Part shown: in pieces, positions 1,050 through 49,086 of the stretch
Numbering within the stretch: position 1 is the first letter of the stretch
Layout: every line of letters starts with the position of its first letter
DNA from: Isurus oxyrinchus
Taxonomy: Eukaryota
Assembly (NCBI GenBank): GCA_026770705.1
Contig: JANJGN010000021.1
Span: forward strand, 90,148,001 to 90,212,000
Length of the DNA stretch: 64,000 bases
Direction: 5' to 3'
Translations under genes and position numbers: made by a program
The notes under the pieces: model-generated
What the model saw: only the letters and a program-made list of their open reading frames with translations
Databases searched by the model: none
What the model was told of the DNA's origin: nothing

Positions 1050-1085
1050 ATGTGGAGAAATTAAAACGTGACCTGCAGAGAGCCG
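1050..1085 (+). CDS. 36-nt phase-1 coding micro-exon of unnamed coiled-coil gene ((D)VEKLKRDLQRA)
   Basis: tttcgtctctcag|ATGTGGAGAAATTAAAACGTGACCTGCAGAGAGCCG|gtaagg; same length, phase and peptide pattern as the exons at 23812, 37475 and 45314. Confidence 0.8.
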
Positions 1086-1149
1086 GTAAGGAAAATGTAT
1101 TAGGACAGAAAGCTGCATTTTTTTCACTTTGATGACGATAAAATATCTA

Positions 1150-1530
1150 ATTATAAAGCAAAAGTAACACGTGACCAATAGAAGAATATATTAGGACTGC
1201 TGTCCAACAGCTTGATGAAAGGGGTAGACTTTGATGAGCGTTTCGAAGGAGGGAGAGGTGGCTGATGATTGTCAGGATTGGGACGGCGTAGGGGGTGGCG
1301 GTGTGGTGGGGAGGAGCGGGGCGAGGAGGGGAGGAAGGGTTGGGGAGGGGGCGAATTACAGAGTGCTGGTCTTGGTCACTGTAAGTTCTACAATTCGAGT
1401 CCAAAATCAGTGGAGCCCATGAAGCTCAGAAGAATGTGGTGCTGGAGGAACATAAGTTGATGAACGGGCATAATTTAAAAATCGAGGCCTTCAATAACTT
1501 GAAGCCAAATTAGGTAAGCGAAGACATTTC
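1150..1530 (-). mobile_element. L2-type LINE 3' fragment, degraded
   Basis: Reverse complement resembles the L2-type 3' end also seen at 12900-13195. Confidence 0.45.
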
Positions 1531-1638
1531 TGCTACACAATTAAAAATGATAACACCAAGCCGACATCTATCTCGTTTTGTCTCAAGAAAGCGTCCAATG
1601 AATATTGTAAAGTCTGTGTATGGGTTTTTTCCCCATAG

Positions 1639-1742
1639 GTTTGAAAGAATCTGTTAAGATGCTTCAATATGTAATTGGAGAAAATTACTGCTTCACTGAT
1701 AACAAACGCCAGTCAAGTGACCTGAGTGTTTGGAGGCAGTAA
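1639..1742 (+). CDS. Candidate alternative terminal exon ((G)LKESVKMLQYVIGENYCFTDNKRQSSDLSVWRQ*)
   Basis: Strong acceptor gggttttttccccatag; open in phase 1 to TAA at 1740-1742; AATAAA at 1905-1910; no homology support. Confidence 0.4.
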
Positions 1743-1904
1743 AGAAGACGAAAAATGTGAATGAGAGTTTTACCTTGGTGCCTCGGGTGCCTGTGTGAAA
1801 ATATTTTTCTTTTATGGAGCACTTTGCTGCAGTGCAACTTGGAGTTAAGAAGGAAACAAACGCTAAGAGCAGCTTCTTGTGGGACCTAACGTGTATGAAT
1901 GCGG

Positions 1905-1910
1905 AATAAA
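1905..1910 (+). terminator. Candidate polyadenylation signal AATAAA
   Basis: About 160 nt downstream of the stop of candidate terminal exon 1639-1742. Confidence 0.3.
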
Positions 1911-2199
1911 GACATTGTGAGGAGGTTCCTTCGCAAATTCAATGACACAAAATAGAGCAACAAAATGCTGGCCGACCTAAGGAGATGGAACTGGATAACC
2001 ATTCCAAAAGCTGCAGAAAAACCCAAAAGGCTGATGCGGCATTTCTACTCTCAGACATAATATGAGTTGTGGCTTTCTAAATAGTTCCTTCTGCTCTGTG
2101 GTCGGTCAGAAGCACGGTTTATGAACGTCAGACCGTGAGACTTGAGACTTTTGGACACGCATTTTGTGGTGGTGGTGGGGGTGAGGGGGAATTTATTTC

Positions 2200-4340
2200 A
2201 TTAGATAGGAAATGAAACTTACATTGAAGATGGGATGCCAGTCAGCAATGTCAAAAGGGCCGAGACTTGTTTCCGAGGAGATAATTGATGATGGCATTCC
2301 ACTGAGAAATTAACAGTCCAAAGGGAGGGGCCACCATCAGAGGTTAACTAAAAAGTTAAATACAGTATCAAGCTTAAAGCATAAACATACCCTTATGCAA
2401 AGACGGGTGGCAGATCAGAAAATTAGAAATAATATGTCATGGTGAAGAATGATAAAATAATTAATAAGGAGTGAAAAATAGAGTACGGGAGAAAGCTAGC
2501 TAATAATATGTAGATGTATAGTAAGAGTTTTGGTAGATATTTAAATAGGAAAAGAGTTAGCAAGGGTGAGCATTGGCCCTATAGAAAGCGCATCTGGGGA
2601 TTTGATAATGGGAAGTAAAGAGATGGAGGTGTAACTATATACCTCTTTTGCTTCGGTCTTCACGATAAAAAACATAATTACAGCCCGGACATAGCTGCAA
2701 ATCAGGAAATGGAAGAGAGGGAGGGCGCAATTCGGGAAAATTACAGTCACCACGCAAGAGGTATTGAGCAATTTGTGGCGGCTGCCAAATCCCTAGGTGT
2801 GGATGGGCTTCACTCTAATGTCTTGAAAGAAGTGGCCAGTGAGATAATTGGTGCATTGGTTTTAATTTTCTAAAAATCCGTAGATTCGGGGAAGATTCCA
2901 TTAGATTGGAAAATAGCAAATGCAAAAAAGGAAGCAGGCAGCAAACAGGAAACTAGACCCCACTTAGCCTAACTCCTGCCACAGGGAAAATGTAAGCAGT
3001 TATTATTAAAGACGTTACAGCAGGGCACTTCGAAATATTTAAGGCGAACTGACAGAGTCAATATAGTTTAGTGAAAAGGAAGTCATGTTTAACCATTCAT
3101 TGGAGTTCTTTGAAGGAGTCACATGTGCTGTGGATAAAGGGGAACCAGTGTATGTAATATGCTTATATTTCAAGAAGCTATTTGATAAAGTGCTATATTA
3201 AAGCTTATTGCAGAAAATAAAAGCTCATAGTGTTGGGGGTAACATACTGGCAGTGCTAGAATATTGGCAAGCTAAGTGGAAACAGAAAGTTCCCATAAAT
3301 AGGTGTTTTTATTTTTGCAGGTTATGACGAATGGTGTACCACCGGGATCCGTGATGGGTTCTCAAACATTTATAATTGATATAAATGACTTGAATGAAGG
3401 GACTGAAAGAATGGTTGTCAAATTTTCTGACGACACAGAGATAGGTAGGGAAGTGAATTGTGAAGAAGATGCAAGGTGGCTACAACAGGAGATAGATAGG
3501 TTAAGTGAGTGTTCTAAGATCTGCCAAATAGAGTATAACGTGGGTAAATGTGAAAGTGTTCATTTTGTCTGGACGAGTAAAAAATCAGATTATTATCGAA
3601 AATGCCAATGCACTGAGATTCGGAGGGGCATGGGTATCCGGGTGCATGAATCACAAATGGTTAGTACGCAGGTAGAACAGGTAATTAGGAATGCCAGTAG
3701 AATGTTAACATTTATTGTGAGGTGAATTGATTGCAAAAGTAGGGACGTTATGCTTCAGTGGTATGGGGCGCTGGCGAGATTACTTCTGGAGTGTAGTGTA
3801 CAGTACTGGCCTTCTTATTTAAGGAACGATGTAAATGCGTTAGAAACAGTTCAGAGAAGGTCTGATGAACTAATGCCAGCAATGGATTGCCTTATGAAGA
3901 AAGGTTAAACAGATTAGGCTTGTCTCTACTGGAATTGAGAAGAGCAAGAGGCGACTTAAATGGAACTCTTAAGATCCTGGGGGATCTTGACAAGATACCC
4001 GTGGAGAGTATGCTTTGTCATGTTGGCGAATTTGGAATAGAGATCGCTCTTTACAAATAAGGGGTCGCTCATTGAGGACAGAGATGAGGTTAAATGTTTT
4101 CTCTCTGGGGGTTGTGAGTCTCTGGAACTCTCTTCCTCAAAAGGCGTTGAAAACAGTATCTTTGAATATTTTTAAGTCACAACTCGAAAGATTCTTGATC
4201 AGCAAGGGGGGTGCAAGGTTAATGGGTGTCTGGAAGAGGTTACAACCAGATCAGCCATGACCTTATTGAACGGCAGAGCAGGCTCGAAGGACAGAATTGT
4301 TTACGCCTGCTCCCAATGTCTATGTCTGTATATTCGTATG
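2200..4340 (+). mobile_element. CR1 LINE, 5'-truncated, degraded ORF2 RT and 3' tail
   Basis: GVPPGSVMG..FIIDINDL..KFSDDT (ORF 3303-3725); VVSLWNSLPQK; tail cagatcagccatgaccttattgaacggcagagcagg. Confidence 0.9.
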
Positions 4341-4557
4341 AAGGCAGATTTTAAGGAGAGGGTAACAATACCTGAAGAGTTGAGAAACATGAATGTAATT
4401 TCCTTCGCAAAATTATTCGAAATTGGATTGGCTGCATCTCAATGTGACTCACGGTGCTGGAGCGTGGGGTTGGTGTCACAAGGAAACCGGAAAGATGGCA
4501 TTGAGAATACAATACGCTGTAACATGTGCCGCTATGAAATCTCAGTTAAGCAGCTAT

Positions 4558-4739
4558 CGAGCATTTTGACTGTAGTCGGAGCTGCACTCATTTAGGCCAA
4601 TGGAAAATATACTATCACGTTTCTGAATAGTTTGTTCTAGAGGAAAAGCTTTGCAATTCACTGCAGAACTACAAGCATTTTAAATTCCCTTGGAGCCAGT
4701 GTAGTTTTCCTGGCTGGTCCATTTTATTTCCTGATTAAT
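4558..4739. repeat. 182-bp direct repeat, copy 1 (copy 2 at 5232-5413), LINE-derived
   Basis: Near-identical cgagcattttgactgtagtcggagctgcactcat...ttttatttcctgattaat. Confidence 0.9.
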
Positions 4740-4929
4740 TTGCTTTGGGATCAATTTTCACACCTAAAACCGCAGAGATGCACAAACTGCTAAAATCATC
4801 CAGCAATGAATTAACATATCTGAAAACCAGACATACTCTTAATGGTTCAAATGAGAAAGGTTGCCAGTTATTGCTAGAACATTGAAGGGAGGAATTATTA
4901 TTTTTTCATTTCTGCCCCTGTATTTTCAA

Positions 4930-5830
4930 TGAATTTTTCACTGTCTCATTTGGTATGCGAGCATCTCTGGCGAGGCCAGCAATTATTATCCATTTTTACG
5001 AGTCCCTTTGTTGGTGGAGAGCCGTCTTTTTAAATTACTGCAGCCCATTTGATGTAGCTACACCCATTGTGCTGTTGCTACACCCAAATTTATGAAATAG
5101 CAACAGCAAATGGATGGCGATTTAATTCCAAGTCAGCATGGTAGGATGCAATGAGGTAAAATTGTGGGTGATGCGTTTTAACGTGGGTGACTGCGGTGCC
5201 AATCAGGTGGGCTGTTTTGTCACGAGGGTGCCGAGCATTTTGACTGTAGTCGGAGCTGCACTCATCTAGGCAAATCGAAAATATACTATCACGTTTCTGA
5301 ATCCTTTGTTCTACAGGAAAAGCTTTGGAATTCACTGCAGAACTCCAAGCCTTTGAAATTCCCTTGGAGCTAGTGTAGCTTTCCTGGCTGGTCCATTTTA
5401 TTTCCTGATTAATGGTAACATTGCAGGACATTTATGGTGGGTAATGCAGCAATGAGAATATGATTGAATGTAAAGACAAAAAGGTTAAGTACAAAATTAT
5501 AGGAGATAGTGACTATCTGATACGTGTCCTGTGCAAATGCTACATACCGCTTTTGACTCTGAGCCTGAATTGTATCCAGTCCTTTTGCATAAGGAGCCAC
5601 ACCACCCGTTATCTGAGCAGCCTTGAAAGGTATTGAATATTGTGTAATCATCAGTGAACATCCCCATAACCACATTTATTATGGAGGAAAATTGTTGATA
5701 AAGCAGCTGAAGTGTTTTGTCTTCAGGCATTCCACCAAAGTACACTAGCAGCCATGTTCTGGGGCTGAGCTAACTCGTGTTCTTGAATCACATTCATCTA
5801 ACGTTGTGTGAAATACGTCTCCAATCAGTG
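4930..5830 (-). mobile_element. CR1/L2-group LINE 3' fragment (RT C-terminus and tail)
   Basis: ORF 5497-5745 GMPEDK..SSIINVVMGMFTDD matches the GVPQG..FADD RT motifs; tail shared with the SINE at 5940-6300. Confidence 0.8.
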
Positions 5831-5939
5831 CCTCTTGGTAGGAACATTGATGAATCATTCCATCAGTTTGTTGATAACGCTGTAATTGGACAGGTATAAT
5901 TTGTAAATCAATTCGCCAACAGAATATACCTATAACAAT

Positions 5940-6300
5940 GTTCTACATTGTCAGACTCTGTGGACATCGGTTCAATCGCACGGCGGTAGCCAATGAAATT
6001 AACACACTTTAAATTTGCAATATTGTTTCCGCAATAGTGAGCTGTAAACTATCATTTACTCTCGCGGGGAGGTGCTGGGGGGAGGCGGGAATGATCTGGT
6101 CCACTAATGTCATTCTTGGAATGAAATCTCTTGTCCTTACCAGCCCTGGTTTCAATGTGATCCCAGATCCACAGAAATGTGTTTGACTTTTAACAGCCCT
6201 CTGATATGATCCAGAAAGATATTAAGTTCGAGGTCAATTAGGGACTTTAAACAAATGCTGGCCTTGCCAGCGATTCCCACATCCCATGAAAGAGTAAATG
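5940..6300 (+). mobile_element. Elasmobranch-type SINE
   Basis: atctggtccactaatgtc..tccttacc..gacttttaacagccctctg..caattaggg..aaatgctggccttgccagcgattcccacatcccatgaaag, a tail I recall as common in shark genomes. Confidence 0.7.
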
Positions 6301-6559
6301 AAGAGTCGATGGCGTTGTCGATCCAAACTCGCTGGAAAAAAAAAGGTAGTTATGTACCCTTTCTCTCATCAATTTTATTTGCGTTCATCTTGTTAGACAG
6401 GCACGCCAAACCTTCCTTTCGATGCTTTGACATTCTCTCCAATTTGTCGGCTTTCCTCTCTCGACCACTCCTTGTTCTGCTATTCCTTGCCTTTGCAGAT
6501 TATGGACTGAATAATGTGGTCGCTAGCCGACGGCGCTTTCGGCACCTTGAAGTCAGCGG

Positions 6560-6670
6560 CATTCCGTCTCCTGCAGTTCCGAAGAACGGTCATGCGGACT
6601 CGAAACTGTTTCTCTCTCGACAAATGCTGTCAACCCTATTGAGATTTTCCAGCATTTTCTCTTTTTGCAC
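6560..6670 (+). mobile_element. Penelope-like element terminal repeat remnant with degenerate hammerhead core
   Basis: ccgaaga-acggtc-atgcg-gactc-gaaac followed by tttctctctc..gagattttccagcattttctc. Confidence 0.45.
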
Positions 6671-7439
6671 TGTCTTCTGTGGCTGTCCTCGATGCGCGCC
6701 TGATATTACACTAATTGCCGCGAATTAGCAATAAAGAAAGTGAGTCCGAATAAGACGATTAGACTGACAGTGCTTGGTGCAAGCCGAAAAAGAGCTTCCA
6801 TCCCAGTCACATGCGCAACTCTCCCAATGTTGTCGCTCGTTTCCCATTGTTATCCAAGATGCCCTATTCTTGTTTACGTATAGTTAACCTGATCTCTTTT
6901 CTAACATGGCTTTTGAGCCCGACTGCTGGCCTGTTTGATTTTTTTTCACAGTACGGCCAAGGACGATTTTCTATTTTGCTGGGACGAGCCGGTCTTTCCA
7001 GCGTGTCTTCGGCCTTAGCTACCTGTTTCCTTACCATTGGAAGGAAGCGACACCAAGAGATGAGAACTTTCCCTTCGCAGACAGCATTTTACTCTCAGTC
7101 CGGGATGGGTATGGACATTTCCTGAGATTCGAAGTTAAGCAGTTTTTGCCTTAACTTCAGCCCACCATGCAGGAGGTGCCCAGATTTAAAACGTGAGCAC
7201 ATGATAACCTTAGTAACTTCATCGTCAGTGATATGTGTTACACATTCATTTCAACTGATTGGATCTCTGATGATGAGCGTTTCGTTTCCAAACGTATGCT
7301 CTCCTTAAGTATTTAATTAATTGGGCATATTGCTCTCGCTGGATGCCCATGATGCTCGAATTCATCTGAAGTGGAACGTATACAGGTGATTAATATGTCT
7401 GTGGTCGATATGCGAAGAGTCACTGACAACACATAATCG

Positions 7440-8260
7440 TATATTCACAGGTTTTTTAAAGCACCGGAGGCGACCTGCTGGCATTTCGCGTTACCATTGG
7501 ATTTCTGAATGAGCCACATTCCTAGTACCATCCACCAGCCCTCTCACCGTAACCGGCCACACCCTTCCTTTGCAGATAATAGTCTAATTCCCTTTTGAAT
7601 GTTTCGATTGAATTTGCTTCCACCAGCCTTTTAAGAAGTGCATTACAAATTTCAGCCACGCGCTGTGTGGCTTTTGTCCCCTCCCATATGGCTTTTGCTT
7701 CTTCGTTGTTGTTTTAGCTATGTTGTCCCTGTCTGACTGTTTCATGAGTGGCAACAGTTTCATGATGCTTTAGCAACTCTGTCAAATTTCAATTCGCCTT
7801 TCTCTTCTCCAAGGAAAGCAGTCCCAACTTATAAAATCTATCTTAATAACAGTAGCTCCTCATCCCCGCAAACATTTCACCGAATCTTTCCTGCATTTCC
7901 TCCAATGCCTTCACATACTTCTAAATTATGGCACTCAGAAATGAACGCAATACTCCATCTGAGACTAAACTTGTGTATTATACATGTTCAACATAACGTT
8001 TTTACTCTTTTATTTAATATCCCTATTATGATGGCCTGGGGTACCCGATATGTTTTATAACTGCGCTCTGAACCCGTTCTGCCAACATCAATGACCGCTG
8101 CACACATACAGCCAGGCCTGTCTGTTCATTCGTCCCTTTAACTTCTATTTCTTGTCTTACATTGTGCTTCAATGTTCTTCCTTGAAAAATGCATCACTTC
8201 ACAATTTCCACTATGAGACTTTATCTCGAATCCTCCACCCATTCCACCAATCATTGGCAA
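7440..8260 (-). mobile_element. CR1 LINE 3' fragment
   Basis: Reverse-strand CR1 motifs tctcttctccaaggaaagcagtccc and aaaatgcatcacttcac. Confidence 0.75.
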
Positions 8261-8299
8261 ACATCAATTCCAGCACCATCACCCCTGACATCTGAGGTG

Positions 8300-11000
8300 A
8301 GTATTTCAGTCGTCTCTAGTTAAATAGATTGATTGCCATGTATTTTGAAGAGGATATATGTCTCTTTAGCTTTTCCATCAAACGTTCCAGAATGCATCTC
8401 AACGAATAATACACTGAAGAACGCAGGGGCCATGCCACTCACTACTTCGCAACACTTGTCACGTAAAATGGCTCAGTGTAATCGTCACAATCAAAGATTG
8501 TGTCCGCCATTGCACCGTAGACCTTTTGTGTCAAACTCTATGAGGACATCTACTTTTTGCAACGAGTTTTGAAATGGCCTATTTGCTTACAATGTGCAAG
8601 ACCTTCATCCTGTCAAGAAAGACACACTAAAGCTCCTTCTGCTCTTTGCAGCATTTCTGATGTATTTATCATACTATGAAGTTTGAGTGGAAAATCTAGC
8701 TATCTTTTCTAATTCCAAGTTGAATTTCTAGCAATACCATTCTTCTATATGACTTAACGGTCTGTTGCGCAGAATATTAGTTTGAATGCTATCAAAAGCA
8801 AAGAGATTCGTCTTGTGTTTGTCACACGGATAGTGGTCATTTTCCTTTTTAATTGTGGACAATCAAGGCATTCATGAATTCCTGCGGAACAATTTGCTGT
8901 TCCCTCGTTCTCGGGTGCAATTTGTAAGTGTCCCGGCACTCTGATGCCTCACCTTTGCGAATGTCAGCTGAAATGCATCTGAGTCTAAAGGTTTTCTTGA
9001 GATTGGTATTTGATCGATTATCAAACTCGGCCTCTTCCATTTTGGCCAATGCTGGAGCTTGCCTATAGCTGTCCCAGTTACGCTCTCTGAGCTGTTAGCA
9101 CACCACTAAGCTGTTAGCTTAACCCAGCTGTATTTGATAATTGTCTTGCCCATTAGAAGAAATTGCTCTGTCTGTGCGAAAAACAAGTGAGTGGCTGCTA
9201 AAGTGGAGGGGCTTACGTACAGCAGGGCGTAATAAGCATTCTTCATGTCGTGTTGATCTGCATAAGCCAGAAGCTGTCTGGCCAGTATGGCTCTTCTGCG
9301 ATGATTCTGTTGCAGGTTTCTTTTGCTTTCCAGGAGTGATTTTCTTTTTCCTTAACAGTGAACTTAACTTTATTTCCCAATCATGCTGCATATGCGTTAA
9401 TGTAATTTTAAAATTTTGCCCTTCCATAATTGAGTCATATTTTTCTTCAAACCAAGTTTACCTGGGTTGATTATGTATAGTTCAAAGAGCATTACTTCGA
9501 AGTTTGAACATACCGCTTCAACATCATCACTAGAGTTTAATTTGAAGGGCATATGTTGTTCATTTTGAGCCTGACTGCTCTGAATAGCAATTCCCAAACA
9601 TTGAGCTTTCTTGGTAGTCCAGTGTTTGTTGGTCTTCTTTTCACTGAGACAGCATATCTCGACTAGGGGCTAGCTTCCTGTGGTCAGAAACGCACAGTAC
9701 TCGCCTCATAATATTGTTGATTATAATATTTTTTTAATGTTGAACCGCTGGCACTTCTACTATGGAAGGTCGGTTCAGTTTTAAAATGAGATAGTCAGTC
9801 TAATTCCACTTGTAGCTCGCCGAGCACAGGCTTTAAGATGCGACACTTCAGTTGCATAACTATGGACCTGTTAAATGGAATAAGGATTTCTGACTCAACC
9901 AAAGTTGCAAACAACGAGTTCCTTATATTCGCATTCATTCCCGAATTTTCCTCTGTTCTCTATGTCAAATTATTTGCATACATATTCCCAGGTAAATCAA
10001 AGCCTCGCTAAGGGACGTGAATCCTTCATAACTGGTATATTTTTCACTTCATCTTTGTATGCAACTCAAATAATTGTCATTATATGCCTAGGCAATCTCC
10101 ATCCGGGATAGCATGGTCCATTTTAGGAACAGTTTCGTAAATCTTTTCTGGATCTTCTCTTCTAATGGAATCGCCACAAATCTGCGTTCACCCCTATATG
10201 TTACCTTAACCGTGAGTTATTCAGCCAATAATGGCAATTATCCCATATGCTGACTTAACATCATTTTCTACCTGGCTTGTATCTTCTGGGCTCTGTAAAC
10301 ATACATATAATAATTCGTCTGTTCGTTAGTACTCCTCATCCCTGTTTCCTCCAAGGTACAAGGGTGCAATGTAGAAGATTCTGTGCCTGGACAAGTTGGC
10401 TGAGCACGGATTTTTAGCTATGCAATATTTGTTTATGTACGTTAATGCAAGAATCTTAATGGGGCAGTGCAATGCAATAATCAGGGCCCACACAGCTAAA
10501 GATGCTTTCAGTATATATCTCGTCAGTATCACTTACCTGGGCTGAAAATCATGGGTTCCTGCTTCAGGATGCTTTGGTATCTCTGGCCTTTATTATCACG
10601 TTTATAATCCTGCGATTGATTTTGTAGAATTCCTGCAGCCTTATTTCCAGGAACATAGCTCTATCAATTCATCCTCCGATATTCTTTTTTGAAAATAGCT
10701 TCTGGATTTCAGCAGATGGACCTCTCTCTGAAATTGTGCGATAAGTCCTCGATTCTCCATGATGATACCACCTGAACATGTTCATCAATATTGCGCCACA
10801 GAATGTTCAACATTAACTGTGGATTTTTTATATAATGATTTATTTATTTATATTCTCGCCTTTACTATTAATTTGTTAAGCGTTCTTTTTTTTATACAGC
10901 TTGGCCAACGTACATGAAAATTTCCCCTCGTCCCTTCGCTTTATCATTTTGGCTCTTACTGCAGGCCAAAGCGCATCATTATATTTCTAATATTTTCTTT
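8300..11000 (-). mobile_element. Heavily degraded R4/Dong-like non-LTR retrotransposon
   Basis: Fragmentary translations in the expected order: 'SAYG..YWLN.LT' (KAPG..WLK), 'GTMLIP', GDSLSP-like, a YMDD-position 'SSDD', then a C-terminal 'EGL..KTR..C..CNGG' zinc-finger-like region; many frameshifts. Confidence 0.5.
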
Positions 11001-11649
11001 TTCTTTCTTTTCTCTTGGTCCTCATAACCTAAGGCTAACTTTCTCATCTGTCATCATGCCACCTGCTCCTTCTCACATCTCATGCATAATTTAGTGAGAA
11101 TTCTCTGCTGCAGCCATTCAGTACACTCTCCTACATTCTTGACACCTTCACAGGCATAACTCAGTATTAAGCACGCCTTCAGCTTCCCTATTTGCCATTA
11201 GTGTGATCACTGGAAGGGCCCATTCAAATACATGAAGCCGGCTTAGTAGCAGCAACAAGTGTGATATCGCACTCTCAATAACGTTTTTTTCCTAATTCAT
11301 TTTATTGTCGGTTATCGTGCCAGTACCTTTCCCTTCCCCAACCCATCCTTCCACTGCCAAGATGCTAGACTCTTTCATAAATTCATTCCTCTAAGCCCAG
11401 CAACACAGATCCCTCCATGATGCCAAATAAATGCGCACACGGCCCTTGACTTTTGTGAAGGTATTGGGGATGATTGGCTCGATATCATGGCCTTAACAGG
11501 GAATTCGTTGAGAGATGATTATATTTTTCCCCATTAATGAGGATTACCTGCCCCCTCCCTCCCCATCAATCCGGCCATTAATTCCACCATTTTCCCCATT
11601 AAAAGCAACATATTGCCCTTTGAGTTTTACCACCAAACCTCACTTTCGT

Positions 11650-13195: not shown

Positions 13196-13199
13196 TGCT

Positions 13200-14630: not shown

Positions 14631-14639
14631 CAAGGAGAT

Positions 14640-37474: not shown

Positions 37475-37510
37475 AAATGGACAGATTGAAAGACAGGCTG
37501 AAAGAGGCAG
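37475..37510 (+). CDS. 36-nt phase-1 micro-exon ((E)MDRLKDRLKEA)
   Basis: tttcattccattttag|AAATGGACAGATTGAAAGACAGGCTGAAAGAGGCAG|gtgagt. Confidence 0.85.
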
Positions 37511-38779
37511 GTGAGTTCGCAACTTAGCATGATGCATTGGTTAACAGTTGTAAGTTTAATTAACTTACATCTCATATGGCTCAAGAGTGAAAGCTTAGCC
37601 TGATAAGGCAAAACGAATGACAGCAAGTGGACAGATGATTTTAAGATCTCTGGATATTTTTTTTTCCGTTTTTCAGCGAAGTCACTGACAATAGATCTAA
37701 AAGCCAGCATTCAAGTTCCACACGTTTCCCTTCTTGTTCGTAGGTGCAATCCCTGTTTGTCCTGCTGAAGCATATTGATGGATATTATCCTTTGCGTTTA
37801 TTGCACTTCCCTTGTCCACTCGAATATATTTCAGCCTTTACCTCTGCTGCGAAATGCAATTAGTTGAGAAGCACATGTGTGGAATGAGGAGAATGATTAA
37901 CTTTGGACACCATGAAATAAGGTTTCCAACTGCTCTTGCTTGGTTGTATTTACATAATCATCATTTCCATTTCCTCTATGAAGTCCTGCTCACCGTTAGA
38001 ATAGCTAAGTCTGGTAATGATACTGTCTCCTGGTGCAGTCGTGGCGTCCTATATATTGCAATATTGCCCCTCCCCCACCTCCCGCCGTTCCCAAAGAAAA
38101 GCAATGTGTTCTTTCGTGCTTTGCAATAATCATCATGTTCGCTCCCCATGATATAAAGACAGAGGGCACCAGCAAATATCCTTGCACGCTGGATCTGTTT
38201 CAAATGTTGTCATTGCATCATTTAGCCCACTATGTGACTTTGCCGAGCTCCCGTGTTGGGCGTCTGGGATGAGAACTCCTTCTTCATTTGGTGCCACCTT
38301 CGCACGTTGATCCACTTGGATCACACTGCTTATTATCTCTCATGGGAAACCTTCACATTTCTAGGCGCTTTATTCTTTCTGCCTTGCCTTCCCTTCGTGC
38401 TTTGATTAGTGTACGATTCTATCAATCCACTGTACCTCATGGACCTATTGATAGCATTCAATTCAAGTATTCAGTTCCACAAGTCGTTGCTTTTTTATCC
38501 TCGATATCTGATTTAATCGGTTGCAATTATATCACTGCAGCTTCATGTATACATCATTACTGGAACGAGATGAGTGGAATATATTTGCATGTGCTCTATC
38601 TGTGCTGAACTTATTTTGGTTCACTATATTCTCAGGAGACAGGCTATTTTTGACACCATTATTGGGGGGAGTATGTAAAAGGATCGCTCTTTCTTTTTGG
38701 ATTGAAGGGAAATGTCTAACCTCTTTTGGAACCATGCAGGCCAGCGAGATCAGTACGGTCTGCTAATCAAAAATATGAC

Positions 38780-41190
38780 CATGAATCATAAAATACTGTT
38801 AAATAATTGGTGTTGGTTCCTCGGAGGAGTGCAATCAGAGCCACGTTTGTGGCAACATTGGGGGCGCTGCTGTGGAAGACAAGAGGAAGAAGGGTAAAAG
38901 AGCTGTAGTGTTAGGGGGTTTCGATTGTTAGGGGAACAGACAGGCATTTTTGTGACCATAAGCATGACTCCAGGACGGAATGTTGCCTGCCTGGTGCCAG
39001 GATCTAGAATATCTCAGAGCAGATGCAGGGGATTCCTCCAAGGGAGGGTGATCATCCAGAGGTATTGTTGCACGATGGTACCAGTAACTTAGGAAGGAAA
39101 AGGTTATGAGGTCCTGAAAGAAGATTTTGGGGAGCTAGAAAGGAGATTGAAAAGCAGACATCCAGAGCAGTACTCTCAGCATTATGCCCCGTGCAAGTGA
39201 ATATAGAAATAGCAGCATTGAGAAATTTAACACGTGGCTGCAAAAGTTGGTGTAAGAAGGAGGACATCAGATTTCTGAAACATTGGGGAATGTGGGACCT
39301 GTGCAAGCTGGAAGGTCTACGCCTGAAAAGGACTGGAACAAATATCCTAGTCGCAGTGAGATTTGTTAATGCTGTTGGGTGGCGGTGGTGGTGGAGCGGT
39401 GGGGGCAAGGTGAGGAGGGCGGGGAGGAGGAGGAGAGGTGAGCCGGTAAATTAGATTGACAGATGACTGGCAACCCGAGCACAAATTTAGAAGCAGGGAA
39501 CAGGAGATGGAGAATTAGTGAGTGGCTCCGAAAGAAAGAAGAAGTGTAGTTTAAAAAGTGGACAGCACAGGATTTTCTCAGTGCTAAATTCAAGGTGTTA
39601 GGAAGTAAAACCAATGAACGGAGGGCACAGATGATGCATGGCAGCATGATTTCATCGCTATACTGGAAATCTATCTCAAAGAGGAGCAAAAAGGGCAGCT
39701 GGACATCCCTAGATATAGAGTTTTCACGCAGGATAGAAATGGGATAGAAAAGGTGGGGGGAGAGGGGTGAAACTTTATTGGTTTAAGAAGCAATTGTAGT
39801 TGTAAGGAAGGATGATGTGCTAAATGAGGCATCAGATTAGTCGACATAGGTTGAAATCAGAAATAAAACAGCGGCAGCTACAGTGCGCAGACTGCAGTAT
39901 AGATCCACAGATAGTGGAAAGCAGTCAGAAGAGCAAACATGTAGGCATATTTCTGAGTGCATATCAAAGGGCAGTAATAGTTGGAGAATAATTCAACTAC
40001 CATAATATCAATTAGGATACTAACAATTTGAACTGCACAATATTCATGACTTGCATTCAAGAGAAATGTTCAGCTTGCATGTAACAAACCCAACAAGAGG
40101 GGGTACAGTTCGAGGTTTAGCCTTAGGAAACGAAGCTGGGCAAGTCGATAAAGTAGCAATGGGTGGCCAGTTTGGAGATAATGATCATAATGGAGTTACA
40201 TTTAGCATTATTGGTTTCAGAAACAATTAAAGGATAAAGATAGAACAGGAGTAAAAGGTCGAGATTGGATGGAAGGGAAATTCCACAAAGCTGAGAGGTA
40301 AACTGGCGAAAATGGACTCCATACAAGTACTAGAAGAGAAAACGTTTCCAAATAGGTGGAAGGTTTTCAAAAGCGAGAAACTACCGGGAGGGCAAACAAA
40401 ACATAGAATAACCCAAAAAACGGGTGGATATTAAGAGGGGTTGATGAAGTGAGAGGCCATTGAGTGCATATCCACAGGTTCCTGAATGTGTCAGGACAGG
40501 TAGATAAGTTGGCCAAGTATGCATACGGAATGCTTTCCTTTTTTGGACAGCATATTGAATACAAATGCATGGATGTATTGATGGAACTGTGTAATACGTT
40601 GGTCTGGCCATAGCTGCAGATTTGCGGACTGTTCTGGTCATCACTTTACATGAAGGACATAATTGATCTGACGAGAATACAGAGGAGATTTGCAAGAAAC
40701 TTACCAGGTCTGGAAAACTGCAGCTATCACGAAATATTGGATAGGCCTAAGGTTGTTTTCCTTAGAACAATGGAGGCTGTGGGGTGACCTTATTGACGTG
40801 CACAAAACTGACCAGTCTGGATAGCATAGGCAGAAAAGGTCTGTTTCCCTAGCTGATGAGTCAATCACCAAGGGCATAGATTTAAGATGATTTGTGGAAG
40901 GATTAGAGGAGACATATGGAAAAGCGTTTTCAGCCAAAGGGGGTGGACGTTAGGAATTCACTACTTAAATTGATGATTGAGGCTGAAGTGCTTAACTCAC
41001 TTGAAAAGTATCTGGATCTACATCTCAAGTGTTGTAACCTCCAAGGCTACAGACCGGGTGCGGGAAAGTGGGATTAAAAAGGACTGTTGGCTTTCTTACC
41101 CCTCACCCCCATTTTTTTTAGCTAGATCAGGCATAATTGGCTGAATGGTCCATTTCTGTGACAGTAACATTTCTTTGGTTCTGTGGTTCT
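38780..41190 (+). mobile_element. CR1 LINE with ORF1 SGNH-esterase, endonuclease, internal deletion, RT C-terminus and tail
   Basis: RAVVLG(D)SIVRGTDRHFC..CCLPGAR..HDGTSNLG at 38900-39095; GGG endonuclease motif near 39755; RT end and tail ggctgaatggtccatttctgtg. Confidence 0.85.
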
Positions 41191-41219
41191 CCTACAGTTT
41201 TTCGATGTAACACTTAAAT

Positions 41220-41520
41220 TTGCACACAGTTTCCCATTCCCACTTTTTGGCTTTCCATTCACCCCATTCCTCTGCTGGCGGTGGCAGTGATCCGATATTT
41301 CCTCAATTACTTCTATTGGGAAGCCCCTATTTTATTGTATGTACGTGTTTGCGTTGTATATGCGCGTTTGATGGTGAGTCTGTCTGTGCTACGATTAAAT
41401 GTTGTCAACAAGTTAAAGTGTAGTGAGACGTTGAAATGTTATCGATGGACGTTGTGAAAATATGCTTTACGGCATACATGAGCAGTTGGCACATTGGCTC
41501 TTAGGATGAACAGTTGCAAT
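41220..41520 (+). mobile_element. L2-type 3' fragment
   Basis: Weak similarity to the L2-type tail at 12900. Confidence 0.35.
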
Positions 41521-41626
41521 TATAAATAATTGTAAATAAACCGTCAGATGTGATAATAGTTGTTTCCTATGTCAAAACAATAAGTAAGAAACTGTTATGA
41601 GCAATGTATTGTTTTTATGACAACAG

Positions 41627-41653
41627 AAGACAAATTGATTGGTACAGCTTCAG
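41627..41653 (+). CDS. 27-nt phase-1 micro-exon ((E)DKLIGTAS), no 36-nt partner found
   Basis: ttgtttttatgacaacag|AAGACAAATTGATTGGTACAGCTTCAG|gtaagt; consensus donor and the same caacag acceptor as other 27-nt exons. Confidence 0.75.
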
Positions 41654-42269
41654 GTAAGTAATGAACAATTATAGTATAATATCTTGAACAATAATTCGTT
41701 TGGAAAGAGCAATCTTTGACAGTTTTCCGTCCTCAGAACACATTAAAACGTAAGCCAGATGTTACTTTGTCACTGTGGCCGAAAAGATGAGGATATTCGT
41801 TTGAGTTTTCGTAATAATTCAACTCGTTTGCAGAACAATTATTTGGGAAGCATATAAATGGGATGGGGATAAGGGCTAACTACATATACCTTTTTGAAAT
41901 ACGCTAAACTGGAGTGTCTACATCTTCCTTTCCCGAACTCCTATAGTTTTCTACTACATCCATGTGTCATGCAGAACACGAAGCATTAATGCTTGGCTCC
42001 TCTCCGTCCCTTTCCATATAGCCCAGATTCCTCTTGCGATTAAGAGTGACAATGGCGACATCTCGTTCCTGTTCGGACAGTTTCATCAGATCCACTGTCA
42101 ATAAATAGACGTATAATTTATATATGTTTGGACTTGCAAGGCCTCACGGCATTTACTTATACTTGTGCGTTTTCAGTTTAATTTACATCTACATATCAAC
42201 TTGAGGAACATTAAATTCTCGATAGTGATAGGCCATTACCACTCAACAGTGTTACATAAAATATGGCGC

Positions 42270-44130
42270 TAATGCTGGAAGGGCGGGATGTGCGGCGACG
42301 GGCCGTCAGTAGCCTGGAGGAGCAGAGGGGATCCAGGGAAGGGATTCCTTAAACAATGATCCTATCCAACTGATCTGGCGTACAGAAAAGCTTCTAGGAT
42401 AGAGATTGAGTCTGCATGGATGCTGTTTACCATGCCACCGTGGCAGTATAAGACAGAGGGTAGAGGGGCAGGATAAAATGGTTGTAGTCGTATGTGACTC
42501 TAATTCTATGGGAATAAAGAATGCTCACTATTCCAGGAAGATCAGTTGCCTAGGTTAAGAAAGGAAGCGAATCCCGAAAGGGAAAGAAATGGTCCACTTG
42601 TCATTAAGCATGTTAATATCAAAAGCATCGGGGGCGGGGGGGGGGGGGGAGCAATAAGTCATGTTAAGTGTTCCTAGAGTCACCTGCTTTAAATCCCAAC
42701 TTTGAAAACACGTTTTTTTTATGAGTTTGCGGCTCTTGCCTTAGTTTAATATCCACAATCTAACCATTTATTTCACTCGCTGTACAATTTGAATTTAACG
42801 TCAACAGTTTGTGTTTAATTTCCAAAATTAATATGTTTGAAATATTAAATCCTGACTGATTCTTTGATGGCATTGCTGTTCCGTAACGCTTTGCTATACT
42901 ATAGACTTTTCTTTGGAAATCACATTTTCCTTTCTGCATATGATTTAAACCTAAATCAAATTTCTTGCTTTATCCGTTCTTGCATGGACATTACCGACCT
43001 CAATGGGATCATTTTCTTGGTTGAAGGGCCTCTAAAGTGCTTCATACCGAAACAAACTCTTCATAAGCCTGATGATAAGTTTGCTACTGATGTGTAGATA
43101 CGACCATTAAGTGCACAATATCAAATGTTCATTTGCCGTCAAAATGAATATGCCTGCGATCACTGTCTAGCAAAGTTAACGGCAGACTTTCATCTAACTG
43201 TATTAGAGAAGCTAACGGGGAACGCAGAATACTCGCTGAGAATTTCAAAAAAGCAATTTCGTTATTGGCAAAGCTTGATGCAATCTTTGAACAAGTGACA
43301 GGGAAAGTATTAAGGGTAAGCTGATGGATACGATCCGTGAAGGTTTGCAACTTTTTTTCTCATTGGAACCGCAGACCCTAATCTAAGTTCAGCATATGAG
43401 AAATGAAGTAACAGACTAGGTAGCAAACTGCCAATAAAACTAACAACAGGATAGAAGAGATTAATTTCAAAACTATTTCCCCGAAGCGCTGGAAAATCGG
43501 ACCAGGCACTCATCAGGGATATGTGTTGTCATCAGTATTGCTATTTACCACTTAAAGCATTGATTTGGAATTAAGAATTGAAATAACCTAATCGAAATTT
43601 GAGGATAACGATAGGGGACATGTGAAAATTATTTTCAATATTTGGGAAGCCTGAAATTAGCACTCATAAGCATTACATTGCGGTCAATATATCTAATAAT
43701 GTAGTCAGGAAATATTTATTTTCTTTAATGCAGACAGCACAGATTCTTTGAAAGAAATGTCAAATTATTACTTGACGCAGGACTGAATAAAGGGTCTGTT
43801 GATGAGAGGACGTGGTTTCAGATGAGATAAGAAGCATTATCACTGCATCGGCGTGTTTGGCAAAATAAACATTTTGGTCGTGCTGTGGACGGGGTGAGGG
43901 GTGGAGCTGGTGGGGGAAAGGTGGCGGTGGGGCTGGTGAAGGGTAGTGAATGTTTTCTATCTTGGCAGTTAACAGATTATGATTTTCCTCGCAGCACAAT
44001 AATAATTAATAAGCACTAACATAATAAACAGTAAGCACTAGGCCATAATGCTCATTTTGAGAGCCGATGCTGACAGGATGGGCCGAATGGCCTCCTACTG
44101 TGCCGGTAAAATGCTGCGATTTTGTGATAA
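42270..44130 (+). mobile_element. Old degraded CR1 pieces (ORF1 fragment, RT fragment, tail)
   Basis: ORF1-like VVVCDS near 42480; tail gatgggccgaatggcctcctactgtgc at about 44078-44104. Confidence 0.6.
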
Positions 44131-44887
44131 ACTGTTTAAGTGGTAAGGAACACTTTAATAAATGATATTGTGTCCGCAAAGAGCTTAAATGTCCTTTACA
44201 TACTTCGATATGTATTTTAGAAACTGTATTAACGCCATTGGCAGCACGCAGTGAAATGTGCAAATACTCCGTCCAGCGGCAAAAAAAATGCAGACATGGG
44301 ATGGAACATAAAATGCTGAGGCAAATTCCAGATTCATAATTACAGTTGAAAATTCATTTCTTGAAGATTTTCAATTTCATAAGTTATTTTGGACGAGCAG
44401 ATTTGATAACAATTCTCCATTTGGGAAGGAGTAAATGACGAAGATATTTATTTAATTGTTGTACAAAGAGTTCCGACAAGGTTTCAGGGAAATTTCTTTG
44501 CACGAGGTTTTCATTTTAAACTAACAGACAACTTAAAATAATGCTTGAATGAAGTATGGTCTTCTAATCTTTTAGAGCTACTTACAATAGTCAGCTTTGA
44601 AACAGTTCTGATGAAACCAACTGTTTTCCTTTTTAATCATAAAAAAGCTCAAATTTATAACAAGCTAAACTCAGCACTACATGGACTCAAGTTTAGCAGT
44701 TGTCCAAAATTTGTACTATTGTGTCAGCTTATATTATTCTCCAAGCATTTGTTTGTCTGTTTTTATTAGCTCTGTTGAGCAGAATATGAAACATGCCATT
44801 GTTAGCCATGCCTTTGACTTTTCTCTAGCCCTATACAAAAAAATCTATCATCATGTTCATATACGTTCCATTATTTTATCACAACAG

Positions 44888-44914
44888 ATGCTGACATAAA
44901 AGCAAAAGACCGAG
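44888..44914 (+). CDS. 27-nt phase-1 micro-exon ((D)ADIKAKDR)
   Basis: attattttatcacaacag|ATGCTGACATAAAAGCAAAAGACCGAG|gtactt. Confidence 0.8.
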
Positions 44915-45313
44915 GTACTTACAAAAGTGAACTGAAGTTCCAGTTATCGATTAATATTTACCATTTTATTTCTCCTTATTCCTCTCTGAAGATTTATTAG
45001 AAATGATACTATAATTATGTAGGCTTTTTTGTTATAAAAATGAAATGTTGCCTACGTTTTAGTTCTGTACATATGTAGTTAATAAGAGAAAATTACTTCT
45101 ATTGTGTCTGTCTGAGTGGCAGGAGAATAACACGGTTAAGCAAACTTGTAATGTCTGATGCGCGACCTCATATGCCCCTTCCAAAGGAATGAACAATGTA
45201 TTAATATGCTTTCCTGTACTCTGCGCATTTTCCCCCGTGCATACTGACCCCTTGACTTTCGAGCTAAAATGATATATAGTACCACGTATTAATCGCTTTC
45301 CTTTCTTTTTCAG

Positions 45314-45349
45314 AAATCGAGAGATTGAAAGATAGTCTGAGAAATGCAG
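45314..45349 (+). CDS. 36-nt phase-1 micro-exon ((E)IERLKDSLRNA)
   Basis: ttcctttctttttcag|AAATCGAGAGATTGAAAGATAGTCTGAGAAATGCAG|gtgttt; paralogous to the 37475 exon. Confidence 0.8.
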
Positions 45350-46199
45350 GTGTTTTCGCTAAGCAGAGCTTATTTTCCATTGATTTATGTAATAAATAAA
45401 TTACAAACTTCGTATTATGATAATGCATTGAAGCTATAAACTAGTTATTTTCCTTTAAAACAATTATTATTCAGGCTTTTTAACATAATGATTATATTAC
45501 GTCTCGGTAATTATTGAATTCGCAATGCACTTAGCGTCAACATTGAATGGGTTTCCCAATCCCGCTGATGCAACTAGCTTGTGCCTGTCAGTCTGTTCTG
45601 GCATTAAGTAAGCAGTGACTAGCTGACACCACCGCAAATCCTCTTCACCCCAGCCCTCTCTCCCAACGAGCACTGTCTCCTGCCAACCACATTGTACTCC
45701 GAACCAATCACGCTTGCCACTGTAGATGTAGCTGGCGAAAACAAATAGGATCCTCTGCTACTATGTTCCTATGATGCAAAGGAACCCGTTATTTTTGGTG
45801 ATGTATAGCACTTCGCGTTTATCTCAAATGCAATTCAAGTACCTAGAATTCTTATATTTTGCACATTTTATCCCGTTTCTTCTTTCTGTCTAATTTGGGC
45901 ATTATTCACGCTCCCAAAGCTCGCAATTCCTGTCAAAGGAAGACCTAGTTCTTCCGATCAGTGGCGATACGGGGCGTATTCCCACTGCCATCAAATTTTT
46001 CTTGACCTGACGATATGCGCCCTTCTTCCGGAATCTTCTGATCCAGGCCAGAAAGGCAGGTGGATGGCGCACGGTTTCGAGGGTAAGACCAACGCTCATT
46101 GAAGAATCGAGCAAAGAGGGTTACACTTTTCTCAGCGATAGCTGTCCTGTTCAGGTAAGTATTAAAACGCAAATTATTTTAATGAATGCCGTTGATTTA

Positions 46200-47830
46200 C
46201 TGAATTGGTGAGTGAATGGGTGAATGGATGAATGAATAGGTAGTGGGTGATTGAGCATTGAAGGTGGGTAGATAAGCAAGTGTGTTTGTGGGGTGAAATG
46301 TGTAGGTGGATGAGGTGGCAGTGGTGGGTAGGTGGGTGGCGTGATCACGTAGGTAGGTGGATGGGTAAGATTGCATTTTCAGTATGTCGGTATAGGGGTG
46401 AGCAAGTTGTCAGGTCTCAGCCGAATTGTGAAGATGAGGATGTAACTGGGTCGGGGATAGCCATGAAGTTGGAGCACGGTTGGGTAGTCTTTCGGGCATG
46501 GTTTGGTAGGCTGGGTAGTCGGCTAGCTGTTGGAGGTACACAAGCGGTCAAAGGAGGTTGGTTCTGGGTGAGGGGATAACTGCGTCGATGGGGGGTTGCC
46601 AGATCTCATCAGCAGTTTAGTCGTGTGGTTGATAGTTAGTTGTCTCCTTAGTTCAGAGGTTAGTCGTATCTGGTTGTAATATAATAGTTTTGTCGGGAAG
46701 GATGGGATAGAAGGATGTCTGGGGGCATTAGCTGGAAGGCATAGTCTGGTGGCTGGGCAGCTAGTCGGTGGCAGTGTCGGCTGATCAGTGGGCATTTGGA
46801 TCTTTTCAATCAGGTAGCTTGGTTGCCAGGTGTGGAGAGGTGGCCGCTGGGTGCAGTTATACATTTGGCTGTGTTGCCGGGTATGTTCAAGGGGAGTTGG
46901 TCGAAGAATCATAGAGTTTTACAGCATGGAAGGAAACCATTCAGCCCATTGTCTCCGCACCTGTCATCAAGCCCTATCTAAGTCTGTTTTGCAACACTTG
47001 GCCTGTAGCCTTTTATGATATGACGTTTCAAGTGTTCGTCTAATACTTATTAAATGTCGGAATGTTTCTCTCCTTTACCACCTTCTCAGGCAGTGAGTTC
47101 TAGATACACCCATTATCTGGGGGCAAAAAAATCCTCAAATCCCCCTTCAACCTCTTGATCCCTGGTTGGCGCTGGTCTGGTGCATTGGGTGGCGAGGGGT
47201 ATTGTGGTGGCGGGGAATATATTTCTTTAGCTGGCTAAGAGATGGACCAGATTAGGGGTAGTCAGGTCACGTCAGAGTGTGGTCTGCTCTGGCTGGAATG
47301 GTTAGTTAGGTAGTTTGGAGGTGTCACATATTCAGGGGGTGATTTGCTGGTCGGTGGCTTGCTGGACTTGTCAGGGCTAGTGAGGTGGTCAGAGGCACTT
47401 TTCAGTTTCGAGGGAATAGTTGGGTCAGTTGGGCTGTGTACTTGGACCTTCGGTGGGGAAATCACACGGTTGTGATGTTGTCGCCTCTGGTCGGGGTAAT
47501 CATACAGTGAGGTGGTTATCAGCTAATTGGTATGGTCGTTGGCCATTGAGGGGTCAGATTTTACTTGGGTGTTTGGGGGGGTAGTTGTTTGTCCGAGCTG
47601 CTGTCAATTCTGGGATGTAATCGGGTGGTCAGGGGTAGTTAGCCTTTGTTAGGTCATTATGCAGGTGGTCAGTGGGTAGTTGTTATTATCATAGAGGAGG
47701 CCAGGTGGTTGGGATGTAATGGCTGATCGGGAGGTAGCCAGTTCAGGTGAGTGGGGATAGGTGAGTAGTCAAGGGGTAGTCGGGTCAGGTCAGCGGCAGT
47801 GGCTGCGTTGACCAGTGGTGATCAAGTAAT
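46200..47830. repeat. Long G/T-rich low-complexity tract interrupted by a CR1 tail
   Basis: Recurrent ggtagtcggg / gggtagtt / ggtggtc units. Confidence 0.75.
46905..47160 (-). mobile_element. CR1 3' tail fragment
   Basis: gaatcatagag..ccattcagcccattg..cttggcctgtagcc..caggcagtgagttc; same family as 16475-17582. Confidence 0.8.
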
Positions 47831-49060
47831 AACAGGAATGATCGGATGAATCAATTTGATGTTCGGCTTTGTTACACAACCGTTAGACCAGGTATATAAA
47901 TGTCTAGCATTTTCCTGGTAAATATTCAGGTTAATGTTGCCAAGCTAGCCCATATCACCCCTAAGCTCAGACTCCGAAGCATGCACAGAGGGTTCGGACT
48001 ACTGGGAATCATCCCATCAGAAATTTAAACTTCCCAGGCAATTCCCATTCATGTCCAGCATCAAGATTGCTGCAGGTCCTGACGCGCATTTTCCAATGTA
48101 TCTCTGACAATCCGGAAACCGGGAGATTTGTGCGGTAAATTAATGAACTAATAGCAATTCCCGCTAGTATAGTTTAAAATCTGATAAGTATCCTTTAGTA
48201 GAGTGAAATCCTCCTTCTTTTGAAAGGTTGCATCTGAGGGCGGTACCTAGTCTGTGTGCAGCCAAAACAGCCATTTTGTTGCACGGTCTGAATCCTGAAT
48301 AGCCATTCCTCCCCATTGGGTTCTCACAAGTGCTGTGATAGATAGTGATTAACAAAACAATCAGGAATCCACTCACATTATCTAGCCCTTGGTTTTCGGT
48401 CGACCACTGACTCAGTATCCTTTTGCCTGTCCCAGGTTTCGTTTGCAATCAAGTTCGTATTAATTATCTTCAGCAACCACATTCTTATTACTTTCTACCT
48501 GTCACTTGGTGAGTCTTTTCACGGCCACTGCCCCTCCATTTGAGCTCTTGCTCCTCTCTTTTCACTAGCGGACATGGCGTGGATTTTCTGTTTGTTTTCG
48601 GTCTTTGATGCTGTACGATGTTCCTGCAGTAGATGTCAAACCTTTCAAGCTGTGTAAAAAATGTCCCCCCCCACAACTTTTTACCCATTCACCTGACTTT
48701 GTCTGATTGAAGCAGTGCCCCCTAATTTGGCGTCCTCTTCAAAATCTGATTTGGAGAGCCAATATCCCCTATTGTGACCACCATAACCTTTATTATTCTG
48801 TACACCCGTGTGTTTCTGTCTGACTGCATGCAAGTGTGTGCCTCTGTTTGTCTGTTTATGTAAAACAGCGATATATCATAACAGGCAGGAAAACTATGGT
48901 CCGAAAACCCTTTAAATCTTTGCAATAACAAAATTATGCATAGAAATTTACAAATGTATCAGACATATTCCACGGAACAAAAACGTGAGAACGTGTACAG
49001 ATCAGCTTTTCAGTCCTAGAGCAAGCATACTTCAAAATACTTTATCTTTTACCGCAACAG

Positions 49061-49086
49061 AGGAAAAAATTGGTGATAAAACAGAG
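49061..49086 (+). CDS. 26-nt member of the 27-nt exon class ((E)EKIGDKTE); shifts phase from 1 to 0
   Basis: tttatcttttaccgcaacag|AGGAAAAAATTGGTGATAAAACAGAG|gtaggatttgaagaaa; one base shorter than its paralogues; downstream intron motif resembles that after 35715. Confidence 0.65.

Follow-up and report, generated by a model that had tools for sequence, protein, structure and literature searches.

A tandem micro-exon coiled-coil gene, probably headless, in a B30.2 family on the MHC chromosome of Isurus oxyrinchus

The closest described systems to the locus treated here are chicken BG, the butyrophilins (BTN and BTNL), and the TRIM proteins with a B30.2 domain. As far as the available text of PMC4046983 and PMC8813856 goes, chicken BG is a tandem multigene family linked to the MHC (major histocompatibility complex), with copy-number turnover. 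Its products have an immunoglobulin V (IgV) domain, a transmembrane (TM) segment, and a long, alternatively spliced heptad rod encoded by 13-36 exons of 21 (sometimes 24) nucleotides (nt), with no B30.2 in that description. The BG tail is also the source of an actin-myosin-regulating zipper protein. In BTN and BTNL genes, short heptad exons precede a single-exon B30.2 (available parts of PMC6790196, PMC12841164, and PMC8813856), BTN3A2 being a member without B30.2 (PMC6790196), and butyrophilins proper are placed on the MHC chromosome of cartilaginous fishes (PMC12841164). TRIM-B30.2 proteins such as TRIM39-like proteins and pyrin combine a cytosolic coiled coil with B30.2, and in TRIM20 the coiled-coil-dimerised B30.2 binds oligomeric ligands (available text of PMC4455283). 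The present subject is a 64,000-nt stretch of Isurus oxyrinchus (assembly GCA_026770705.1, contig JANJGN010000021.1, positions 90,148,001 to 90,212,000, forward strand), whose whole length is called the window, and the large micro-exon gene, unit B, within which it lies.

Unit B and its family have the MHC linkage, tandem arrangement, copy-number turnover, and alternative splicing of a long rod of many tiny exons in common with chicken BG, and unit B likewise has no B30.2. In contrast, unit B has neither Ig nor TM, and its exons, at least 166 of 36, 27, 24, or 18 nt, form 21- and 18-residue modules and not the 21-nt tail of BG. With BTN it shares heptad exons and MHC linkage, and the neighbouring units A and C have short heptad exons before a single-exon B30.2. 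True BTN-type IgV exons occur on the same contig. However, the family lacks IgV, IgC, and TM, unit B lacks the terminal B30.2, the rod is 10-50 times longer, and the B30.2 falls in a separate long-branch clade. The family resembles TRIM-B30.2 in combining a coiled coil, here predicted to be cytosolic, with B30.2, and in lying within a large TRIM cluster, but it has no RING or B-box and builds its rod from micro-exons. Because the defining features of BTN, BG, and TRIM were looked for and not found, the family is none of these. The first-pass annotation's likening of the design to butyrophilin and BG tails is supported. In its mode of working the architecture would resemble the heptad tail of BG and BTN, minus the membrane half and at a much greater length.

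Unit B spans about 625 kb, with at least 166 phase-1 micro-exons of 18-36 nt and no B30.2 of its own. The preferred reading, which is an even call, is that it encodes a cytosolic coiled-coil rod of about 1,600 residues, likely dimerising, that pairs with or acts as a scaffold for B30.2-bearing tandem paralogs. The genome comprises 4.98 Gb and the contig, C21, 118 Mb. Adding 90,148,000 to a window position gives the C21 position, and positions beyond the window are given as minus or plus extensions. With 1.8 Mb of added flanks (-660 kb to +1,204 kb), the region covers 1.864 Mb.

Segments of 27 nt flanked by AG and GT, in phase 1 and with good splice scores, number 118 on the plus strand and 9 on the minus strand over 1.664 Mb, and those of 36 nt number 107 and 11. 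At the remaining lengths between 12 and 60 nt, each strand has 2-30. The micro-exons are thus beyond chance, as the 27/36-nt strand bias is far above the minus-strand control. A position-weight exon model, with a cut-off that lets only two minus-strand matches per class through, kept 335 exons, of which 173 are 27, 121 are 36, and 41 are 24 nt long. Additional 18-, 21-, and 30-nt exons are also present. The 21-nt class is small (17 plus versus 8 minus) beside the 27-nt class (175) and the 36-nt class (132). A single high-scoring 36-nt family-like exon lies on the minus strand at +1,163,211 (L192), perhaps as an inverted copy.

In the window, all nine AG/GT-flanked segments first described are present, sum to 278 nt, and have G as their last base and AA, AG, or AT as their first two. 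Eight of them are symmetric phase-1 exons of 27 or 36 nt, while the ninth, at 26 nt, would cause a frameshift on inclusion. The original tally was too small, as a tenth exon had been missed and the gene has at least 166. The 27+36 pairing had been taken as regular, but strict alternation fails where two 27-nt exons (41627 and 44888) follow each other. Glutamate or aspartate at every junction, also claimed, holds within the window and falls to 236 of 318 junctions in the wider array.

The 36-nt exons (n=121) have I, L, M, V, or F at position 2 in 87%, at position 5 in 94%, and at position 9 in 68%. Position 4 of the 27-nt exons (n=173) is hydrophobic in 65%, and 91 of these exons have K at position 7. 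Given these hydrophobic positions, a 36+27 pair therefore maintains a 3-4-3-4-3-4 register, and the a/d pattern of the two classes bears out a heptad coiled coil in symmetric micro-exons. The window itself is less regular, with N, Q, L, I, and I at position 4 of its five 27/26-nt exons, only three of which are hydrophobic. A 21-amino-acid (aa) module of three heptads accounts for 135 of the 318 adjacent detected exon pairs and is not a general rule. Summed lengths of 18, 24, and 17 aa occur in 72, 48, and 42 pairs, in a tally blurred by undetected exons. The 18-aa modules (7+11) come from 27+27 and 36+18 exon pairs, and a second 27-nt class, resembling a shortened 36-nt exon, gives 18 aa with the first. 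By coiled-coil theory, such a module would be a heptad plus a hendecad. In a 33-copy tandem array from -266k to -200k, 30 of the 33 units are accompanied by an 18-nt partner whose offset is conserved, again giving 18 aa (control: 80 of 500 random stretches).

The sequence allows symmetric phase-1 exons to be duplicated, lost, or skipped without a frameshift. Nine internal isoform deletions in the RefSeq models of relatives measure 6, 8, 8, 9, 9, 9, 11, 12, and 23 aa. Since none is a multiple of 7 aa, and none is 21 aa, these deletions keep the frame and not the heptad register, contrary to the idea that skipping a pair would preserve both.

The locus consists of five tandem units (Table 1), each with its own start exon, rather than simply being one megabase gene. 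A single giant gene that terminates at the B30.2 of unit C is no longer the leading interpretation in view of the dead B30.2 exons and internal start exons. Units A and C end in intact B30.2 (PRY-SPRY) exons. The exon-poor stretch from +650 to +780k holds two full-length decayed B30.2 exons, which agree with the intact one in 330 of 551 and 336 of 549 bases and have indels and 7-15 stops per frame. Their alignment scores are 221 and 227, whereas for 100 random stretches each the means were near 46 and the highest scores 148 and 69. The B30.2 of B2 is decayed (60% identity, many stops) while the B2 rod and start exon remain intact; rods therefore persist without a head. In or after unit B, nhmmer with all four B30.2 exons found no trace of the domain, with matches only at A, B2, D, and C. 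Directly behind the decayed exon of B2 lies a further partial B30.2-like piece (about +680,700-680,920, L144, nhmmer E 3e-10).

A start-codon exon with about 39 codons and a phase-1 donor is conserved among units B2, D, and C and is preceded at B2 and C by a non-coding exon. An acidic tyrosine motif, presumably resembling a kinase/SH2 site, is coded by the start exons of B2 and C, and the tyrosine is lost in dead unit D. The start exon of unit C matches only itself in a genome-wide DNA search. The 5' region of unit B (-380,462 to -380,275) matches that of unit A at 70% over 189 nt (E 2e-14) and occurs nowhere else in the 1.864 Mb. The ATG of the 87-nt start exon of B at -380,130 aligns with the ATG exon of A at -496,636, and the exon following the latter matches the start of the Narcine ortholog. 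No 5' exons common to the A/B type and the B2/D/C type were detected. The portion of B2 from +440 to +647k is a duplicate of +1,030 to +1,174k in C. At the DNA level, whole-gene tandem duplication has given copies with a head (A, C), copies without one (B, B2), and a dead copy (D).

The proteins of relatives are database gene models. The B30.2 of unit C retrieves XP_038671249.1 of S. canicula, a protein of 945 aa with 65% identity across the domain, which chains collinearly to 63 micro-exons of unit C from +952k to +1,196k. At 48 of 63 junctions the pieces abut with exactly one junction residue each, against 0 on the minus strand, 2 with the reversed protein, 0-1 in four shuffles, and 7-11 in four 21-aa block shuffles. 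This catshark model is partial and begins at a Met inside a micro-exon. Related RefSeq models also occur in S. torazame, Narcine, Chiloscyllium, and Hemiscyllium, and a ray locus has nine rod-only isoforms. The listed models are either orthologs of units A and C/B2 or close paralogs of them, and none covers unit B. Six of them scanned with Pfam gave SPRY or nothing, and the automatic names "TRIM39-like" and "A33-like" are misleading, as they rest on B30.2 alone. Contig C34 has, at 2.7-7.5 Mb (L105-L109, L213-L220), five more B30.2 exons closest to the family, 0.8-1.6 Mb apart. All four C34 stretches examined contain 27-nt exons upstream of B30.2, and two also contain 36-nt exons. By its phase-1 27/36-nt rod, common exon types, and 5' homology to A, unit B is assigned to a chondrichthyan micro-exon coiled-coil/B30.2 family. 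The guess of an unannotated or lineage-specific gene thus fits a largely unannotated chondrichthyan family with models in shark and ray relatives. A literature description of this family was not found, subscription journals and supplements being outside the scope.

The locus is on the MHC chromosome: of 31 MHC class I matches, 30 fall on C21, and the one nearest to the locus (93.6 Mb) is 2.3 Mb beyond unit C. The contig also holds many TRIM B-boxes and more than 130 of the 150 B30.2 matches listed. An open frame of 845 aa (C21:66,132,994-66,134,184, minus strand), remote from the main class I cluster, contains MHC class I alpha1 and alpha2 matches. Motifs of Ig, RING, and B-box were absent from the 1.864 Mb, as were tblastn matches to Ig, and Pfam found none of the three domains in the orthologs. 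Among the matches listed (best 150 of 2,305 candidates), the nearest TRIM B-boxes are at 89.14 and 92.68 Mb, and none lies in the locus. The proteins P0001, P0005, P0011, P0023, and P0024 have no Pfam match to TRIM_CC. The B30.2 tree groups A and C with four C34 paralogs and the shark and ray models in a single long-branch clade (100/100), from which the sampled TRIMs and Ig-bearing proteins are separate. The tree has 53 rows, includes 24 of 30 genomic loci, and is midpoint-rooted; it does not give the direction of descent. The nearest solved structure to the B30.2 of C is BTN3A1 (E 8e-23), then TRIM7 (3e-16). The predicted structure of P0001 is of low confidence (pTM 0.25), with structure matches below TM 0.5 by query.

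The substitution ratio dN/dS within unit B is 0.56 (26 reciprocal-best exon pairs, bootstrap confidence interval 0.35-0.96), and it is 0.47 for B versus C (18 pairs) and 0.33 for B2 versus C (32 pairs). Read off-frame, the B pairs give 1.69 and 1.39. These ratios indicate that the unit B rod is under purifying selection, and they speak against a recently silenced pseudogene whose intact exons are a relic, which is the least probable of the explanations considered and very unlikely. Silencing would agree with the missing head exon, with dead neighbour D, and with the damaged exons of unit B, among them lost donors at +153,762 and +188,046, a mutated acceptor at -98,008, and the 26-nt exon in the window. 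Damage is rare, however. The plus-strand scan gave 10 broken candidates versus 267 intact exons; after four candidates that overlapped intact exons were dropped, five remained in B and one in D, and B has 129 intact 27/36-nt exons. The detected broken share is about 4%, while simulation gave 10% at 2% neutral divergence and 41% at 10%. Broken symmetric exons could also be skipped without harm to the frame. Membrane attachment, as a golgin-like tail-anchored tether or as a BG-like protein with missed TM/Ig exons, is improbable. At +245,597, 1.1 kb past the final rod exon candidate, a strong acceptor leads into a frame of 44 aa that has a TM-like stretch followed by a stop, and exon 1 of B has an upstream in-frame ATG with a mildly hydrophobic stretch. 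But TM-like terminal frames are at chance level in the 1.864 Mb (14 plus versus 12 minus), and the tail anchor was rejected; the upstream ATG is ATA in unit A. Ig or TM exons upstream of the rod, a possibility raised at first sight, were not found. No credible TM exon lies between start exon and rod in units A, B, and C, and in C the sole good candidate up to the first 36-nt rod exon is an 18-nt exon. Among the 31 BTN IgV matches listed (best 150 of 424 candidates), none is at C21:89.5-91.4 Mb, and those on C21 are at 101-114 Mb, at least 10 Mb away.

A stronger competitor, although still a tentative one, joins B, B2, and C in one 1.58-Mb transcription unit with alternative promoters, in which B transcripts skip start exons and dead B30.2 exons to reach the B30.2 of C. 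The products, equally doubtful, would be nested rods of about 1,000, 1,700, and more than 3,300 aa with the same head. All modelled exons, at least 317 in B, B2, and C, are symmetric in phase 1, so that joins from B to B2 to C hold the frame. Unit B has no recognisable terminal exon, and a decayed B2 head with a rod still selected would be expected if that head were bypassed. On the other hand, splicing must skip about 46 kb (+244k to +290k) and about 130 kb (+649k to +780k) and pass over intact start exons. Unit boundaries are not bridged by any RefSeq model in four relatives, and 7,981 candidates of 1,015-2,895 aa yielded no homolog, which is a weak test. Without a B30.2 exon, unit B is graded as a likely headless scaffold, or else as splicing onward to the head of a neighbour.

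Several points weigh against the headless rod. The confidence interval of dN/dS within B comes close to 1, badly decayed exons would escape the broken-exon scan, and exon 1050..1085 is no better kept than its surroundings, with 78% identity to its local duplicate 38.7 kb upstream and 82-83% in the flanks. The frameshifting 26-nt exon, which may be a broken or skipped exon or an assembly indel, falls inside the window, and a terminal exon of unit B was looked for and not identified. The S. torazame model ends before a B30.2 that is present in its 87%-identical S. canicula relative; rod-only RefSeq models can therefore be truncation artefacts. No database protein maps cleanly on the window exons, the best chains (-200 to +60 kb) having 0-2 abutting junctions. 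Splicing of unit B is deduced from the spliced catshark model of paralog C. Three contig sets presumed to be RNA do not cover the B30.2 exon of C, which is no evidence either way. The ten window exons are probably spliced, to judge from homology, splice signals, and selection.

On the preferred reading of a headless rod, growth would come from tandem copying of exon cassettes (36+27, 27+27, 36+18) and of entire genes, each 21- or 18-aa cassette lengthening the coiled coil. The terminal exon would have been lost in some tandem copies, and skipping of single in-frame exons would vary length and sequence. The rod is predicted to be cytosolic and to form a parallel dimer. The weakest step is the pairing of headless with headed rods, which is suggested by analogy with BTN3A2 and the chicken BG tail. 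BTN3A2 pairs with BTN3A1.

Other proteins are similar in architecture. Long coiled-coil + B30.2 library proteins (P0084-P0087, P0099, P0054, and others) have rods of 700-2,400 aa, one B30.2, and no Ig or RING. In contrast to the present family, several have a signal-peptide-like start and their B30.2 is in another clade. P0084, P0085, P0086, P0099, P0074, and P0117 (1,100-2,600 aa), with such N-termini and in a separate clade, may be an undescribed secreted family. A secreted protein akin to the P0084 type was rejected for unit B: a look-alike motif in its 5' exons ranked 23rd of 856 candidates, and the signal-peptide scan gave 23 plus versus 7 minus candidates, many of them intron-end artefacts and none convincing. 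Enterophilins have a leucine zipper and B30.2 and no TM, and schistosome micro-exon genes (MEGs) contain arrays of symmetric micro-exons; both likenesses are of architecture only, without sequence comparison.

The window contains further features besides its exons. No intact 36-nt exon was found between 41627 and 44888; a possible decayed 36-nt-type exon with an in-frame stop and without AG lies in this gap at about 44518-44553. A 24-nt AG/GT candidate under the model cut-off (52795-52818) is similar to the linker exons found ahead of the 55625-type exon in paralogs. A direct repeat of 182 nt (4558-4739 and 5232-5413) has 93% identity at 674 nt spacing. An intronic duplication (26859-27194 and 31853-32331, about 5.1 kb spacing) has pieces about 79% identical, with no family exon found inside. 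Open reading frames at 3303-3725 (plus), 14023-14391 (plus), and 16841-17641 (minus) are presumably decayed CR1/L2-type LINE reverse transcriptase, and repeats of this sort fill the introns.

Table 1. Window micro-exons, tandem units, and same-family RefSeq models. Positions follow the window scale unless a contig is named.
Feature	Position	Strand	Detail
Entire window	1..64000	+	internal to unit B
36-nt phase-1 micro-exon, 12 aa	1050..1085	+	unit B
27-nt phase-1 micro-exon, 9 aa	20167..20193	+	
36-nt micro-exon	23812..23847	+	
27-nt micro-exon	35689..35715	+	
36-nt micro-exon	37475..37510	+	81% identity to exon 23812; surrounding intron 57-62%
27-nt micro-exon	41627..41653	+	
27-nt micro-exon	44888..44914	+	weak donor
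36-nt micro-exon	45314..45349	+	
26-nt family exon	49061..49086	+	one base below the 27-nt class
27-nt micro-exon, the tenth	55625..55651	+	same exon type as a conserved module in shark and ray RefSeq proteins
Unit A			16 modelled exons; B30.2 head intact
Unit A B30.2 exon	-425,772		intact, terminal
Unit B (contains the window)	-380k to ~+244k; limits about -380,500 (C21:89.768 Mb) and about +244,500 (C21:90.393 Mb)		136 modelled and 30 18-nt exons; about 1,630 aa; without B30.2
Unit B2			74 exons; head decayed
Unit B2 start exon	+268,498 (C21:90,416,498)		L063
Decayed B30.2 exons	~+679,980 and ~+742,885		full-length
Unit D			dead; stop within its 27-nt exon, head decayed
Unit D start exon	+709,918 (C21:90,857,918)		L147
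Unit C			107 exons; head intact
Unit C start exon	+772,233 (C21:90,920,233)		L153
Unit C B30.2 exon	+1,200,264		intact, terminal
RefSeq models, S. canicula			XP_038671249.1, XP_038672306-10
RefSeq model, S. torazame			XP_072329362.1
RefSeq models, N. bancroftii			XP_069775384-90, XP_069775418-28
RefSeq models, other			XP_043533988-9, XP_060706632.1

The locus represents a large, selected, MHC-linked family of cartilaginous fishes. Since the family has hardly any ordinary exons, annotation cuts it short, misnames it, or overlooks it. It is possible, if doubtful, that B, B2, and C form a single 1.58-Mb gene that has three promoters and about 350 or more micro-exons, and whose inner B30.2 exons died and were spliced over after tandem duplication. 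If so, it would give graded B30.2-tipped rods, the longest exceeding 3,300 residues (about 0.5 µm), with length set by promoter choice and in-frame skipping. This would be an MHC-encoded molecular ruler and among the most exon-rich vertebrate genes. In this family, the heptad-exon/B30.2 half of butyrophilins is separated from the Ig-TM half. Headed, headless, and dead copies stand side by side in one locus, which offers a model for the origin of BG-type tails without B30.2 and bears on the question, present in the available text of PMC8813856, of whether such tails in chicken BG work with separate B30.2 partners.

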